From an uncultured Christensenella sp. (GTDB taxonomy: Bacteria > Bacillota > Clostridia > Christensenellales > UBA1242), in contig CAZOFH010000001.1 in the NCBI GenBank assembly GCA_964579205.1, positions 73,386 through 137,385 of the forward strand: a stretch of 64,000 nt of DNA. Reading direction: 5' to 3'. The notes under the pieces were generated by a model. That model was not told the DNA's origin. It worked only from the letters and a program-made list of their open reading frames with translations, and did no database searches. Position numbers and translations under genes: made by a program. This document shows positions 48,285 through 57,452 of the stretch, one piece after another. Positions within the stretch are counted from its first letter, which is position 1, and each line of letters begins with the position of its first letter.

Positions 48285-48400
48285 AGTCTGCAGGTTCGGA
48301 GGCAATCCCATAATGAGGCTTGCCGCTCATTCCCCTGCCGGCGGCTTGCCATAGTGTGAGCTATCGCACACACTATAAAACAAGGATAATTTCTTCAACT

Positions 48401-48484
48401 GTCATTCAGAGGCTGATGCAATCAGCCGTGGAATCTGTGAGGCTCACCGTGCCGAACCCCCACCCCGCTATTGCTTGCACATAG
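48401..48484 (+). repeat. hairpin-box repeat, copy E1 (3' of cwlD)
   Basis: GTCATTCAGA GGCTGAT GCA ATCAGCC GTGGAATCTGTGAG GCTCACCGTGCCGAACCCCC..ATTGCTTGCACATAG. Confidence 0.8.
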
Positions 48485-48517
48485 AACAAGAGGCAGGAAG
48501 ACTATTCGATTAATAAT

Positions 48518-48593
48518 GTCGCAGGCTTTGCCTTCGACGGGGTTCGCTATCGCTCACGGATTCCACGGCGAACGATGCCCGCATCTGAATGAT
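48518..48593 (-). repeat. hairpin-box repeat, copy B (3' of adhesin 1)
   Basis: Sense strand: ATCATTCAGA TGCGGGC ATC GTTCGCC GTGGAATCCGTGAG CGATAGCGAACCCC, then GTCGAAGGC-AAA-GCCTGCGAC hairpin. Confidence 0.8.
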
Positions 48594-51705: not shown

Positions 51706-54700
51706 TCACTCGCTAGACATATTGTCGAGGTCGGTATTGATGTTGCCTGAGGTGATTGGGGCAAAGACAGCCACTACCACAGAGTCCATTACTTCAGACT
51801 TTTTAAAGCGCACCGAGGCAGCCGTGCTCAATACCGCACCGCTAGAGTCGGTCCAGTGCTTGAATTCATACCCGTATTGCGTGACAAACGCCGCACAAGT
51901 GATCGTGTCGTTATCAGCGAGATTTTCGACATCATCGCCCACGATGAATGCCTTACCGCCAAAGGTCGATTGCACCGCCACCCCTTCTAGTTTTGTAGCA
52001 CCTGCTGTCTTTAGTCCAGAATAGTTGCCTGATACAGTCTTGAGGTAAATTATAATACATCCGTCATCCTCAAAATCGTGCAGCATCATCTCAAATTTGA
52101 GCGCGAATACATTACTCTGCTCGTTCGCAAAATAAGTAACATTCATCGCATACGGCGTGTTGCCGATATCCGCCTTGCAGTAGATGACATCTATCCAGTG
52201 AGTATTGTCAAAAGAAAGTTGCGATATGTGATAGCCTGTCGCAGGAGTAATTTTGATAGTGGCATTAGGCATATATTTATCAAAGAACATCTCATCTGCA
52301 AATTGCGTCGTAGCGCCTGTCACTGTGGCATTTAGATAAGGTGCCCAGTACGCATATAAGGTGACATTTGAGGCAAAGGTCGACTTTGTGACACTCGGAG
52401 TGCCGTCCGCATTATAGATTTTTTGCCCTGCGCCATTGGTCTGTGTATAATATCCTGCGAAAACGTGTCTTGATGGACCGCCTGACGGAGGTGTAATATT
52501 AGACAATGCCGCATTGTATGTCGCAGAGACTGATGTGCTGCCTGCAGTCGTGGCGGATTGATTGTTGAGAGTGATTGTCACAGTCACCCCTTGCCATACA
52601 GCATACAGGTTGACCGTAGCACCGCTCGTGGTAGTCAAGTTTCTGACACTTGCACTATTATTATATACTTTAGCCCCATTACTGCTCGTTGCCCAGCCCG
52701 AGAACGTGTAGCCTGTGCGAGTGAAGGCATTAGCAGTTAGATTTTTGTATGTCCCATATTCATGAGTTGAGTTACTCATCGTGCCGCTACCGCCGTTTGC
52801 ATTGTATTTTATATAATAGGTGAACCCAGTCCATTTTGCATACAGAGTAGTGCTAGATGTAAATGTCGAGGTAGAGTTAACTGGCGTACCATCTGCATTG
52901 TAGATTTTCGTTCCCCCACCATTTGTACTAGTGTAATATCCTCCGAATGTATAGTAATCCTTTGTAGGTGGAGTGATATTAGGCAAAGTATTATTCTCTA
53001 CCGTAACGGATGTAGTACCTGCAGTCGTCGCAGATTGATTGTCAAAAATGAGGGTTGTAGTGTTATCGCCTACTCCTCCTTCCCATACTGCATAAAGGGT
53101 AATCGTCGAACCAGCTGATGCAGTCAAATTACTTACGCTTTGCCCATTAGTATAAGCCACTGACCTAATTGGACTAGTCGACCACCCGGCGAAAAAACTG
53201 TCAGTTTTGGTAAATGTATTTGTAGTCAAGTTCTTTGCCACATCATAGGTGTGAATAGAATCGCTCATCGTACCTGTGCCACCGTTAGCATCATATTTTA
53301 CCGTGTATGAGATAGGTGTCCATTGGGCATACAGTGTGGTATTAGATGTGAATGTCTCGGTTGAATAAGTTGAGTAACTACTACTCTTGTAAACTTGCGT
53401 ACCTCCACCGTTTTGCTGAGTATAATATCCGCCGAATGTATACCCTGTACGGCTAGGCTCCTCAATAGCTCTTAAATTCTTTATTTGCGTGCCAGACGCT
53501 ACAAAATACTTTTGAGTCCCTGCAAAAGTAGCAGATTGATTGTCAAAGGTTATAGTAATATCGGTAGAATCATTACTCCTCCACACTGCATAAAGATATT
53601 CCGAATTACCACTGTTCATATTGATGACACTTTGCCCATCATAATAATCTACCCTTCCATCGTTAGCATAAGAACTATATCGTGCCCAACCTTTGAAAGT
53701 ATATCCAGAACGAGTAAACGTATTTGAATTCAAGTACGATGCCACGCCGGCAGTATGAGTAGAGTTACTCATAGTACCTGTGCCGCCATTGGCTTTGTAA
53801 TACACGGTGTATGTTCTAGGTGTCCATTTGGCGTAAAGCGTGATATCGGAGGTGAATGTTTCGTCTGAGGAAGTTGGTGTACCATTTGAATTATAAACTT
53901 GCGTACCGCCACCGTTTGGCAGGCTATAATACCCACCAAAAGTGTAGCCAGAGCGCGAAACAGTCTCATTCATTGCAGGTAAATTACCATTTGGCACTAT
54001 CCAATGAACCTTACACCCAACAGTAGTAGGGACCTGCATATCAAAAGTGATAGATATCATTGTGCCACTGTATGCCTCCCAAACAGCATATAGATTAATC
54101 GTAGAATAATCTGATGATGACAAATTGACCACATTCGCTTGATCCGCATAGGCCACGCTACCGCTAGCACTCGTCGCCCAACCTTTAAACAAATATCCCC
54201 TTCGAGTATAATTGCATAAAGACAAGTTCTTTGCACTATCATAAGTATGAGTAGTATTACTCATTGAGCCGCTACCACCGTTTGCGTTGTATTTGACATT
54301 ATAAACAATCGCATCCCATTTCGCATAAAGGACAGTGTTTGAGGTAAATGTAGATGCCGATATACCTGATACACCACTTGACAAATATACCCTTGTTCCC
54401 GCTCCATTAGTACTAGTGTAATAACCTCCGAATTTGTATCCCGTACGAGTAGGTGGAGTAATATCGGGTAAAGTATTAGTATCTAGCGTAACAGATGTAG
54501 TACCTCCTGTCCCGCCTTGTTTATCAAGAGTGAGGACTATTACATTCCATTTTGCATAAAGAGTAGTGTCCGATGCAAAAGTAGATGTAGAGTTGACTGG
54601 CGTACCATCTGCATTATATATTTTCGTTCCTCCACCATTGGTGCTCGTGTAATAACCGTCGAATTTGTATCCCGTACGAGTAGGCGGAGTAATGGATGGC

Positions 54701-56010
54701 AGGGTATTATTTGACACCGTAATAGATAAAGATCCACCTATACCGCCTTGTCTATCAAGCATGAGCATAACAGCATTGGTATCAGCATCAACGGCATCTG
54801 CTGCACTGTCTAGATTAAGTAGCAGGCACGGACGGACGGCGTTAGGATACCAATCAACATCTGGGCCACTATCACCATAAATATCACTTCCACAACCATC
54901 GACACTATATGCAGCAGAAGATCCATAGTCCGCAAGCACCGAGCGACTCCATGAATATGGATAAACTTCAGTATTCTCAGTTACATTATCCGAGATATAT
55001 TCTGAGCACCCATCATATGTAGACCGCTCAGCATTATTTGTCTCCCAAAGTCCATCATTTGTATCATCTAATCCCATTTCTACAATGCTTGGCAAAAATA
55101 GATAATCTGTCCCCCAGTTTGTATATCCTGCTATGCTAGTATAATCTAATTCAAGTGAACCATAAACACCATAACTACCCGATGCTGTTGACAAAGAATC
55201 GTTACTATGCAAACTTTCCTCACCTATCAAACTAGGGTCTTGCACAGCATTTATCCAAGGCATCTTATTAGGGGTAACCAAATAATTTGTCAGTCCTTTG
55301 CTAGCGACGGTATACAACGAGAAAATATGGTCAGAGGATTGGGGGGTACCATTTGTCAATGTTTCACTATCTGTGGCATAAGTTCTGTTGTTAGGATTAT
55401 TAAGTGTCTCTACTCGAATATAACTAGTACCATACATATCCGCAGGATACGTCGAATTTTCTGTGATTGAGCCTCTATTCTCATAATACCAATCCCCCGA
55501 CCAAATAGAGTAGAGCCCACCATTTACCAATGCTGTGTCATAGTCATCATTCAATCTTTGCTGTAGACCAATCTCATCACTATAATCTTCACCACCTGTA
55601 CCGTTCCAGCCCCAAGCCTCTTGGTGATTGTTACTAAGCCACAGGGTAGCAATGAGGTTGCCGTCAGTATCATTTGAGACGTAAGTCACAATCCAGTCTA
55701 GTCCGCCGAGGCGCACTACGATACTCTTGTTAGCGGTCTTGTTGTATGTTTTGGCGCGCAAATCCGCCGCGGTCAGAGGAGTGACCGCGGTGCTGGTTTT
55801 TAGACTAGACAACTGAGTGCTGACGCTGCCGCTAGCCCCATAAATCATATTAACCAAAGTTTTGAGAGTTGCGCGCCTAAAAGGAGTCGATCCTGTCGCC
55901 GTCGTTGGGTTTGTAAGTAATTCATCAATATGTACAAAACTATTCATATTCGATGACGAAAAGGCATCGGGATCCGATACCTTTTTGACTGTGGATAAGT
56001 GACTCACCAA
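51706..56010 (-). CDS. giant InlB B-repeat surface protein, paralog 2; the as-sequenced ORF lacks its start codon and part of its membrane anchor
   Basis: 1434-aa ORF with the same head and C-terminal modules as paralog 1 and about 12 B-repeat units. The frame stays open upstream through LISLIIVVVISLSAWLL (a TM helix) to a poly-G tract. The ATG plus RBS at 56095 is one frame off. Confidence 0.88.
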   Translation of the reverse strand: MVSHLSTVKKVSDPDAFSSSNMNSFVHIDELLTNPTTATGSTPFRRATLKTLVNMIYGASGSVSTQLSSLKTSTAVTPLTAADLRAKTYNKTANKSIVVRLGGLDWIVTYVSNDTDGNLIATLWLSNNHQEAWGWNGTGGEDYSDEIGLQQRLNDDYDTALVNGGLYSIWSGDWYYENRGSITENSTYPADMYGTSYIRVETLNNPNNRTYATDSETLTNGTPQSSDHIFSLYTVASKGLTNYLVTPNKMPWINAVQDPSLIGEESLHSNDSLSTASGSYGVYGSLELDYTSIAGYTNWGTDYLFLPSIVEMGLDDTNDGLWETNNAERSTYDGCSEYISDNVTENTEVYPYSWSRSVLADYGSSAAYSVDGCGSDIYGDSGPDVDWYPNAVRPCLLLNLDSAADAVDADTNAVMLMLDRQGGIGGSLSITVSNNTLPSITPPTRTGYKFDGYYTSTNGGGTKIYNADGTPVNSTSTFASDTTLYAKWNVIVLTLDKQGGTGGTTSVTLDTNTLPDITPPTRTGYKFGGYYTSTNGAGTRVYLSSGVSGISASTFTSNTVLYAKWDAIVYNVKYNANGGSGSMSNTTHTYDSAKNLSLCNYTRRGYLFKGWATSASGSVAYADQANVVNLSSSDYSTINLYAVWEAYSGTMISITFDMQVPTTVGCKVHWIVPNGNLPAMNETVSRSGYTFGGYYSLPNGGGTQVYNSNGTPTSSDETFTSDITLYAKWTPRTYTVYYKANGGTGTMSNSTHTAGVASYLNSNTFTRSGYTFKGWARYSSYANDGRVDYYDGQSVINMNSGNSEYLYAVWRSNDSTDITITFDNQSATFAGTQKYFVASGTQIKNLRAIEEPSRTGYTFGGYYTQQNGGGTQVYKSSSYSTYSTETFTSNTTLYAQWTPISYTVKYDANGGTGTMSDSIHTYDVAKNLTTNTFTKTDSFFAGWSTSPIRSVAYTNGQSVSNLTASAGSTITLYAVWEGGVGDNTTTLIFDNQSATTAGTTSVTVENNTLPNITPPTKDYYTFGGYYTSTNGGGTKIYNADGTPVNSTSTFTSSTTLYAKWTGFTYYIKYNANGGSGTMSNSTHEYGTYKNLTANAFTRTGYTFSGWATSSNGAKVYNNSASVRNLTTTSGATVNLYAVWQGVTVTITLNNQSATTAGSTSVSATYNAALSNITPPSGGPSRHVFAGYYTQTNGAGQKIYNADGTPSVTKSTFASNVTLYAYWAPYLNATVTGATTQFADEMFFDKYMPNATIKITPATGYHISQLSFDNTHWIDVIYCKADIGNTPYAMNVTYFANEQSNVFALKFEMMLHDFEDDGCIIIYLKTVSGNYSGLKTAGATKLEGVAVQSTFGGKAFIVGDDVENLADNDTITCAAFVTQYGYEFKHWTDSSGAVLSTAASVRFKKSEVMDSVVVAVFAPITSGNINTDLDNMSSE

Positions 56011-56050
56011 GAGCCACGCTGATAGAGAAATTACAACAACAATTATTAGG

Positions 56051-56095
56051 CTAATTAATGCCCCCCCCCCCCCGGGTCAGAAAGCCTTTATTCAT
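56051..56095 (-). other. orphaned 5' start segment of the adhesin 2 gene (MNKGFLTRGGGGIN-stop), out of frame with the main ORF
   Basis: AAGGAGAAAAACGCG-ATG. It reads through the G13 tract into TAG. Removing one G joins it to the TM helix and the main ORF. Confidence 0.7.
56061..56073 (-). repeat. homopolymeric tract, C13 on plus strand = G13 in the coding sense
   Basis: Counted directly in the sequence: 13 consecutive C. Confidence 0.95.
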
Positions 56096-56306
56096 CGCGT
56101 TTTTCTCCTTTTTTTGCCTATTTTTTGACCCCAGTTTTGGGGGGCGAAAATGCCCACTTTTTACAACTTTCGCCCGCCGCAAAACTTGAGGTGTTTGTTA
56201 ATTTTTGGCTGCCGTCCGCTTTAACAAAAGCGCACGGAATATTCCTGTCATCCTGATGACAGTTTTCTTTCAGCCAAACCGACCTTTGCGATTGCTTTAC
56301 ATTATT
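56096..56306 (-). promoter_or_regulatory. long structured 5' leader of adhesin 2
   Basis: Three-way junction at 56205-56277: closing helix TTGGCTG/CAGCCAA, a 7-bp hairpin CTGTCAT/ATGACAG and an 11-position hairpin with one mismatch. There is also an 8-bp helix GGGCGAAA/TTTCGCCC at 56142-56175. Confidence 0.5.
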
Positions 56307-56450: not shown

Positions 56451-56557
56451 TATGTGCAAACAAATGCAATATGGGGTTCGCCTGCGGCTCACAGAGTCCA
56501 CGGAGTGCCTTGCACTCCTCTGAATGACACTGCGCGGCTGCACCCCGAACCCGCAAT
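56450..56557 (-). repeat. hairpin-box repeat, copy E2 (3' of the ttcA-like gene)
   Basis: Sense strand: ATTGCGGGTTCGGGGTG..GTCATTCAGA GGAGTGC AAG GCACTCC GTGGACTCTGTGAG CCGCAGGCGAACCCC..ATTGCATTTGTTTGCACATAG. Confidence 0.8.
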
Positions 56558-56588
56558 AATCAAATTAATTGTGGCGTAGATCCCCATA

Positions 56589-56672
56589 GCGGCTTGCCGC
56601 AAGGCGCCCGCAGGGTGCCTGATGCGCCGAATGGCGCATAGTGCGTGCGACAGCACGCACGCGGCAAGCCGC
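56589..56672. repeat. perfect 84-nt four-way junction (cloverleaf-like palindromic unit)
   Basis: P1 is 12 bp (GCGGCTTGCCGC/GCGGCAAGCCGC). It encloses a 7-bp arm (one G:T pair), a 6-bp arm and an 8-bp arm with 3-4 nt loops and 0-3 nt linkers. Confidence 0.75.
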
Positions 56673-56741
56673 CCCCGTCTAGAGACACGCACAGTTCAAC
56701 AGACAGCGCCCCCACTACCACGCTACTGCCACAACCCACGC

Positions 56742-57452
56742 TCAGTCGAACTTGAGGTGATTGCGCTCGGGGTGAGTCAACGCACTCAATATATGCTCGT
56801 GCACATGCGCGATACGCGGATTGAGCGAAGCGATATAATTCTTGATGAACTCGCGCTCAGTCTTTTTGTCGGCAGGGCAATCATTATGGAAAACGGGCAG
56901 CCCAGCGGCGAGCGCGGTCGTCTCACTCTCCCAAACCAAAACCATTGGTCTAATGACGGTCATCCCGGTACGGTCAAGGCGCGTCACGGGCGCAAAAGTC
57001 GACAATCTGCTCTCAAAAAACATCGACAAAAAGAAAGTCTCAATCAAATCGTTGGCGTGATGCCCCAGTGCGATTTTGTTGCAGCCGAGTGCGGTCGCCT
57101 CGGACGCGAGCATTCCGCGTCTCAATCTCGCGCACAGCGAACACGGATTACTCTCTTTGCGCACCTCGAATAGCAACTCATATATGCGCGACGGAATCAC
57201 CTTGTGCTCTATCCCGAGCGAACGACAGTACTCAGATATTTGAGTAAAATCTGACTCGCCATTGTGCATATCAATAGTGAGCGCGACCAACTCAAACTTG
57301 TGTGGATAATAGCGCTGAATATGCGCCAAAAAAGTGAGCAGCGCCAGACTATCCTTTCCGCCGCTCAGCCCGACAGCGATTTTGTCGCCGTCCTCAATCA
57401 TATTATATCTATCCAAAGCCTTGCGGACTCTGCCCTCAGCCTTACTTCTCAT
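56742..57452 (-). CDS. ttcA: PP-loop ATPase, TtcA-family tRNA 2-thiocytidine biosynthesis protein
   Basis: 236 aa with the SGGKDS PP-loop and CSLC / C..D.CP cysteine motifs. Confidence 0.85.
   Translation of the reverse strand: MRSKAEGRVRKALDRYNMIEDGDKIAVGLSGGKDSLALLTFLAHIQRYYPHKFELVALTIDMHNGESDFTQISEYCRSLGIEHKVIPSRIYELLFEVRKESNPCSLCARLRRGMLASEATALGCNKIALGHHANDLIETFFLSMFFESRLSTFAPVTRLDRTGMTVIRPMVLVWESETTALAAGLPVFHNDCPADKKTEREFIKNYIASLNPRIAHVHEHILSALTHPERNHLKFD

Follow-up and report, generated by a model that had tools for sequence, protein, structure and literature searches.

An intergenic repeat family with a four-way-junction fold in a small-genome gut Clostridia species

Results

A four-way junction between a ttcA-like gene and a surface-protein gene

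The genome under study (G000) belongs to the small-genome gut Clostridia and comprises 1.14 Mb in 20 contigs, with 44.7% GC and 95.5% completeness. We analyzed a 64-kb window of it, which spans C1:73386-137385; positions given here without a contig label are those of the window. The spacer between a ttcA-like gene and the gene for a large surface protein, together with a related site near 48.3 kb, contains the following features.

48341..48374, minus strand: what is left of a junction unit, fused to E1 and made up of one closing arm and a hairpin-C-like stem
51706..56010, minus strand: gene for a 1434-aa surface protein with Flg_new repeats (Pfam)
56473..56529, plus strand: E2 core, a second repeat family, forming a composite with the junction
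56529..56588, plus strand: 60-nt linker module separating the E2 core from the junction, also found at C14:305, C2:128733 and C6:66536
56589..56672, plus strand: complete four-way-junction repeat unit, with hairpins A, B and C ordered 5' to 3' on this strand
56589..56600, plus strand: 5' closing arm GCGGCTTGCCGC, whose partner is 56661-56672
56602..56620, plus strand: hairpin A, AGGCGCCC-GCA-GGGTGCCT, 8 bp with one G:T
56622..56639, plus strand: hairpin B, ATGCGCC-GAAT-GGCGCAT, 7 bp
56641..56660, plus strand: hairpin C, GTGCGTGC-GACA-GCACGCAC, 8 bp
56661..56672, plus strand: 3' closing arm GCGGCAAGCCGC
56673..56741, plus strand: tail CCCCGTCTAGAGACAC..., which spans the gap to the ttcA stop codon and belongs to a repeated block
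56742..57452, minus strand: ttcA-like PP-loop ATPase gene (Pfam PF01171, E 7e-19), its 3' end 69 nt from the junction

The original prediction described positions 56589-56672 as a perfect 84-nt four-way junction, and folding with ViennaRNA bears this out: a 12-bp closing helix surrounds three hairpins, and the minimum free energy structure equals the centroid on both strands. The fold has 35 pairs, namely the 33 that were predicted and two A-T pairs that lengthen hairpins A and B. Single nucleotides serve as linkers (A between the 5' arm and hairpin A, G between A and B, A between B and C), and hairpin C abuts the 3' arm. Folding both strands, as had been suggested, gave the same junction on each. 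With RNA parameters the plus strand reaches -68.5 kcal/mol (z -8.86) and the minus strand -63.0 (z -6.53); with DNA parameters the values are -44.1 kcal/mol (z -9.2) and -40.7 (z -7.4), and none of 200 shuffles folded as well. The one G:T wobble of the plus strand, in hairpin A, becomes a C.A mismatch on the minus strand. Scored against our covariance model R1, the window copy is the best member (103.5 bits).

The junction is embedded in repeated DNA. A 470-nt block around it matches the start of contig C14 at 88% identity, and the 78 nt on the tail side match C14:305 at 88% overall. Related tails, of the form CCCC-N4-GGGAGACA or GAGAAGAAC, lie 3' of most copies of the junction, and a terminator scan of the window copy's tail (56673..56741) found no intrinsic terminator. 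The likely promoter of the 1434-aa gene lies about 300 nt downstream of the junction, where a TTGATA-17-TACAAT region is 95% conserved between strains. The gene itself has a G13 run just past its start codon (window 55900-56100), and a 1.4-kb block within it (window 53080-54533) is 90% identical to contig C17.

A degenerate relative of the junction had also been proposed at 48301-48372. Arm-like words are indeed present there (GAGGCTTGCCGC at 48315 and GCGGCTTGCCAT at 48341), and the hairpin-C-like stem at 48353-48374 has one compensated pair and one mismatch, but the region folds no better than its shuffles (z -1.4 and -0.8) and scores 15.6 bits against model R1 (E 0.14). It is a remnant of the unit and not a junction. 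The same kind of fusion of arm, hairpin and E element also occurs at C15:18305 and beside C11:2896.

The junction unit is a multi-copy, intergenic and mosaic family

By pattern, BLAST and covariance-model searches, we found 26 full copies of the unit in G000, at least four partial ones and some 12 orphan arms, each in an intergenic position; the genome-wide search that the original prediction had called for thus shows that the unit is not unique to its locus. Copies are 73% GC, against 44.7% for the genome, and are irregularly spaced at about one per 44 kb. We also ran a generic junction detector, which looks for three branches enclosed by a closing seed of 8 perfect bp, with pairing of 72% or more. 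At -45 kcal/mol or better it reported 22 strong junctions in G000, none in G000 shuffled within 100-nt blocks and none in 258 kb of distant relatives. G000 has no second strong junction family.

The family is narrowly distributed. Among 61 relatives, model R1 matches only G000 and two sister species of the same genus, G009 and G014, and across 401 genomes of the bacterial family the pattern GGCTTGS-N46-76-SCAAGCC is enriched only in these three (24, 18 and 3 occurrences, respectively). A broader model, R2, had no matches in 120 other genomes of the bacterial family. Within the genus, 3 of 17 species carry the repeat.

Many copies are composites with the second repeat family, E, which has the core GCTCACAGATTCCACG and about 90 cores in G000 (in the window, at 56473-56529 and 48400-48590). 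An E core lies within 300 nt of 12 of the 26 junctions and is missing from that distance in the other 14. In eight copies the core lies at 82-102 nt from the side of hairpin A and always has the same orientation relative to the junction; in the two minus-orientation copies among them it is 89-99 nt away on the other flank. The window copy had been described as opposite to its neighbor E2, a statement that depends on an arbitrary strand label. The proposal of an independently mobile module holds in its first half, as 14 copies stand without an E core, but mobility itself did not find support, no clean empty site having been found.

Mosaics take the form of composites of E core, linker, junction and tail, and of orphan arms fused to E cores or to single hairpins. 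A 65-nt variant at C6:66536-66600, counted among the 26 full copies, has no hairpin B and forms a three-way junction; a deletion between GGCGC words, which recur in hairpins A and B, accounts for it. Elsewhere, a perfect palindrome at C1:229084-229128 has a single arm, GCGGCTTGCCGT, with an inverted tail before it and a tail after it, and looks like a snap-back or collapsed derivative of the junction unit (C1:229101). Of the identities offered by the original prediction, that of a REP/BIME-like unit is the one that a multi-copy, intergenic and mosaic family supports.

The fold is conserved across three species

In an alignment of 24 copies from G000, 96.6% of pair cells are paired and nine pairs have changed on both sides. 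Extending the alignment to the three species raises these figures to 97.4% of cells and 26 of 33 pairs; this alignment was fitted to the model and includes both strands, and so leans towards the structure, and as a control, sliding the partners by one to three columns leaves at most 46% of cells paired. The closing helix exists in two covarying subtypes (...GCCGC/GCGGC... and ...GCCGT/ACGGC...): at position 12/73, C-G is found in 12 copies, U-A in another 11 and U-G in a single one. G009 has compensated closing arms, GGGGCTTGGTGC/GCACCAAGCCCC. As the arms of G009 and of the T/A subtype are not self-palindromes and yet pair with each other, the helix between the arms, and hence the junction, is the maintained object.

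In both sister species the closing helix is kept, as are the first pairs of hairpin B (ATGC) and hairpin C (GTGC), the junction-proximal GTGC of hairpin C being common to all three species. The remainder of all three hairpins differs from G000 and is still perfectly paired. What is conserved, then, is a fold: a closing helix of 12-13 bp and three hairpins, each 7-12 bp long, in which the pairs next to the junction are conserved. This fold forms only in single-stranded nucleic acid. G:T accounts for 31 of 1473 pairs (2%), and the four G:T events against two A.C mismatch events, read by eye, are too few to pick the relevant strand.

Copies, strains and species vary in ways typical of DNA

The variation of the family is of the DNA type: loops are flipped, a module is inverted, parts are deleted, and both mosaics and orphan arms occur. 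The loop of hairpin B in G000 reads GAAT in 13 copies and its complement ATTC in six, and that of hairpin C reads GTC or GAC. G009 behaves similarly, with TTC (about 12 copies) or GAA (2) in hairpin A and TGC (about 9) or GCA (4) in hairpin C. These flipped loops are exact reverse complements in copies that are otherwise co-oriented. At C11:23858-23942 both closing arms read GCGGCTTGCCGC: the center of one arm is flipped, with TT in place of AA, and the closing helix therefore has a TT.TT mismatch.

Comparison of the same spacer in related strains had been suggested as a test of mobility. Contig L020 (ENA ERZ27271042), from a divergent strain, encodes an identical TtcA protein and also has the junction in this position, differing at 5-6 sites. 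Next to the junction, the 60-nt linker (window 56529-56588) aligns with L020 as its reverse complement (score 65 vs 25), and over the following 120-150 nt or so (spacer alignment, reference 264-384 vs L020 270-418) the two strains have unrelated sequences. Exact-protein look-ups for the neighborhoods of C3:95789 and C2:91500 returned identical spacers, and one metagenome scan returned only relatives of at most 54% identity. Logan contigs end at the junction element or 28 nt into it: junction elements break short-read assemblies of this lineage.

The sister species yielded no clean pair of filled and empty sites, since ttcA and a dacB-like gene have other downstream neighbors there; downstream of ttcA, G014 and G009 have an ordinary terminator and then another gene. 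Four orthologous sites are nevertheless occupied in two species, with G014 sharing C5:183 and C1:65635 and G009 sharing C9:5690 and C11:23858, and at each of them every species has its own hairpin variant. At the G009 orthologue of C11:23858 the interior is in the opposite orientation. That paralogues within a genome are more alike than orthologues between genomes suggests either that copies evolve in concert or that preferred sites have been re-seeded repeatedly. One junction site of G014, on its contig C25, corresponds to a diverged DnaA-box region in G000. The cluster of TTATCCACA-type DnaA boxes at C15:3350-3650 is a likely oriC region of G000, and a G014 locus (L015) has a junction copy and an E-like unit in the spacer that matches this cluster.

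In G000, orientation agrees more with GC skew than with the neighboring genes

Between genes of the same direction, six copies lie in the sense and 5-6 in the antisense orientation; a further eight copies are flanked by convergent genes and five by divergent ones. In about 11 copies a terminator separates the gene from the junction. At an orthologous site behind the dacB-like gene, the junction lies 42 nt (G000) or 28 nt (G014) beyond the T-run of the terminator, and the same site in 15 other members of the genus has the terminator only. About eight copies, among them the window copy, have no intervening terminator and lie 37-90 nt past a stop codon (161 nt at C2:128733). These are therefore probably transcribed, which leaves room for a role at the RNA level.

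The strand that reads A, B, C in order is the strand with more C than G in 23 of the 26 G000 copies (flanks of ±5 to ±50 kb; binomial p 9e-5), and in 21 of 26 with flanks of ±1.5 kb. That strand is opposite to most genes, i.e. the lagging strand. Four copies have neighboring genes on the minority strand, and their orientation follows the skew and not the genes. The ratio is 11:3 for copies without a nearby E core and 12:0 for copies with one; the E family is itself weakly biased relative to GC skew (53:35). With flanks of ±10 kb, the same polarity is seen in 5 of 17 copies in G009 and in three of the only four copies in G014. The G009 count means either that the polarity rule is not general or that the interior can flip relative to the feature that sets polarity.

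Comparison with known repeats and candidate enzymes

In the literature on REP, REPIN and MITE repeats we found no description of a four-way-junction repeat, and the unit does not belong to a described REP family. Searched against Rfam 15, tRNA models included, the 64-kb window gave no match at gathering score, with chance-level hits only around the locus (E up to 10); a tRNA-like or other known RNA identity was accordingly dropped.

REP and BIME elements are GC-rich palindromic intergenic units, often at the 3' ends of genes and in both orientations, which form mosaics with other short motifs and can occur on transcripts (PMC6006769; PMC3733652). The junction family resembles the enterobacterial elements in being made of short, GC-rich, palindromic extragenic repeats, here in 26 copies, and it resembles BIMEs in combining with E core, linker and tail in variable arrangements, the linker being inverted between strains. 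It differs in architecture, a REP being a single stem-loop of 20-40 nt and our unit an 84-nt closing helix with three autonomous hairpins, and in host, as it occurs in Clostridia with 1-Mb genomes; G000, moreover, lacks a Y1 transposase. BIMEs are further marked by being bound or cleaved by IHF, DNA gyrase or Pol I.

REPINs consist of two inverted REPs that pair as end units into one long hairpin, form a population of sequences within a genome, and are inherited vertically with orthologous positions kept; their cognate transposase, RAYT, is a single-copy Y1 HUH enzyme whose gene usually has REPs on its flanks. Likewise, the closing arms of the junction pair, the family evolves as a sequence population inside each genome, and orthologous positions are kept between sister species. 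There is also a likeness in sequence: the 11-nt arm word GCGGCTTGCCG/CGGCAAGCCGC recurs elsewhere as the outer stem of REPIN-like single hairpins of 64-95 nt, in more than 117 matching stretches. The matches listed include Pseudomonas viridiflava (NZ_LKEH01), P. triticifolii, Planctomycetaceae, Betaproteobacteria, Acidobacteria and other MAGs (loci L047-L120), and among those listed 61 of 85 fold as one hairpin and only a copy from Christensenella sp. UBA4651 has three hairpins. Unlike the junction, these arm-word elements are thus one long imperfect hairpin, and G000 and G014 have no RAYT. The shared word suggests either kinship with REP-type palindromes or convergence on them, and it may reflect convergence on a stable GC-rich palindrome centered on CTTG.

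No copying enzyme came to light. A six-frame search for PF01797 (Y1/RAYT) was negative in G000 and G014 and found only fragments in G009, and an intact copy is present in G006, a genome without the junction repeat; RAYT-driven copying was therefore rejected for G000. IS-like multi-copy ORFs were not found in G000 either, where all repeats of at least 250 bp are surface-protein paralogues, and we discarded the idea of a parent IS, or of an autonomous element, with the arms as its ends, since orphan arms bound no ORF-bearing unit. At the borders of the 26 copies we saw no target duplications or direct repeats; the flanks tend to extend the closing helix, with a G-run on the 5' side and a C-run on the 3' side. 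Palindromes of the REP/REPIN-RAYT type have a conserved GTAG or CGTC tag at one end. Seven of the 26 copies have CGTC within 12 nt of the 3' arm and one has GTAG, in tails that are homologous, so that these counts are not independent.

Elements of the IS200/IS605 type have folded subterminal hairpins that are recognized on single-stranded DNA, make no target duplication and are biased towards the lagging-strand template (PMC5027513; PMC6006769). The 23:3 polarity in G000 has a flavor of this peel-and-paste transposition, but G000 has no TnpA/TnpB gene with these ends, the element is non-coding and the polarity is not seen in G009.

Other modular repeats are closer in host or in principle. BOX, RUP and SPRITE of pneumococci and bcr1 of Bacillus cereus are lineage-specific, modular and stably folding intergenic repeats of Firmicutes that are often co-transcribed, and the junction family is likewise lineage-specific and modular, with stable predicted folds. 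Those elements are long imperfect hairpins or boxA-B-C arrays, and we know of none that has been described as a perfect, covarying four-way junction. Integron attC sites are recombination sites that work as folded single strands; their structure is conserved over their sequence, their apex is sometimes branched, and the choice of strand matters with respect to replication. By analogy, the junction might be compared with them in its conservation of structure over sequence and its strand choice relative to replication. Sites of the attC type lie in cassette arrays beside an integrase and have conserved extrahelical bases and R and L boxes, whereas junction copies are dispersed, perfect and free of cassettes.

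Discussion

We interpret the family as GC-rich DNA palindromes, non-coding and specific to the lineage, which belong functionally with REP, BIME and REPIN repeats, have a four-way-junction architecture and act as folded single-stranded DNA. We consider this interpretation probable. The family is real and apparently an undescribed structural variant of such repeats, and folded single-stranded DNA is most likely the form in which it acts. The junction would form on DNA that becomes transiently single-stranded at the replication fork, where arm-to-arm templated repair (template switching) could keep the stems perfect; the same switching between arms would produce the loop flips. Copies within a genome would be homogenized or re-seeded by conversion or by strand-specific copying of a single strand, which could in turn give rise to the replication-linked polarity. 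Effects on neighboring genes, such as a barrier to read-through or protection of 3' ends, would be side effects, and the copying enzyme, if there is one, would not be a RAYT.

Alternatively, the element could be a structured RNA that acts when transcribed, as a 3'-UTR stabilizer, a Rho-independent-like barrier, a processing signal or a small RNA, with selection keeping the fold. The fold is very stable and covaries strongly, the roughly eight copies that follow a stop codon without a terminator, the window copy included, should sit on mRNA, and the single G:T of hairpin A is a pair on the plus strand only. Against this, orientation relative to transcription is inconsistent, a terminator precedes the junction in about 11 copies, and five copies have divergent genes on either side. 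The two strands fold equally well, with G:U making up 2% of pairs, GC skew predicts orientation better than gene direction does, and there is no Rfam match. Loops flip, linkers vary and no unpaired nucleotide is conserved; together with the scarcity of G:T and an orientation independent of genes, these are traits of DNA palindromes and not of RNAs with conserved unpaired nucleotides. The RNA element that the original prediction listed among its options is for these reasons disfavored, and we regard it as unlikely. A classical MITE, in which the 12-bp arms would be terminal inverted repeats that a DDE transposase supplied in trans recognizes as double-stranded DNA, seems to us very improbable. 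It would suit the perfect terminal inverted repeats of 12-13 bp, the short length, the many copies, the breaks in assemblies, and the orphan ends and truncated copies; it is at odds with flanks that extend the helix where target-site duplications would be expected, and with a genome in which no IS has matching ends and every repeat of at least 250 bp is a surface-protein paralogue. It also leaves three perfect internal hairpins that covary between species unexplained.

The fold might instead be a chromosomal site recruited by the host and read as a folded single strand or as a mimic of a Holliday junction, in which case polarity would come from function and not from the mechanism of insertion. 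Candidate readers would be a junction-binding or architectural protein, or the priming or restart machinery on the lagging-strand template. The GC-skew polarity of the G000 copies, the retention of the closing helix and junction-proximal pairs across species while the distal stems drift, and the keeping of orthologous sites all agree with such a site. A presence in 3 of 17 species of the genus and in none of the sampled other genera (by models R1 and R2 and pattern enrichment), the lack of polarity in G009, the decay of copies into fragments and the irregular spacing of about one per 44 kb do not, and we think this explanation improbable, though somewhat less so than a MITE.

A bolder proposal can be made, of which we are doubtful: that the junction is a recognized substrate of a single-strand DNA system acting at the fork, either a copy-and-paste or conversion machinery other than RAYT or a junction-binding or priming factor of the host, and that this system reads the shape, i.e. 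the closing helix and junction-proximal pairs, ignores the distal stems and sets the polarity. Were this true, the elements would form a new class of replicators or cis-sites that are defined by structure, at home in gut Clostridia with reduced genomes and with look-alikes in further genera of the bacterial family.

To our knowledge, hardly any REP-type repeats are known outside Proteobacteria, and those known are single hairpins tied to RAYT transposases. The gene-dense 1.1-Mb Clostridia genome studied here keeps a family of perfect junctions in which the closing helix is retained at orthologous sites and all three hairpins have been rewritten between species. If the polarity and the concerted evolution hold in closed genomes, the family would be a tractable case for studying how DNA elements defined by structure only are copied and kept perfect, with template switching, conversion or an unknown enzyme as candidate routes and with possible effects on replication or transcription. 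The architecture is also wider than the sequence family of G000, as two other genera have isolated AT-rich junctions with GGCTTGC...GCAAGCC closing helices, at G420:C16:4636-4715 and G316:C10:60446-60525 (DNA fold z -6.9 and -8.0, respectively).
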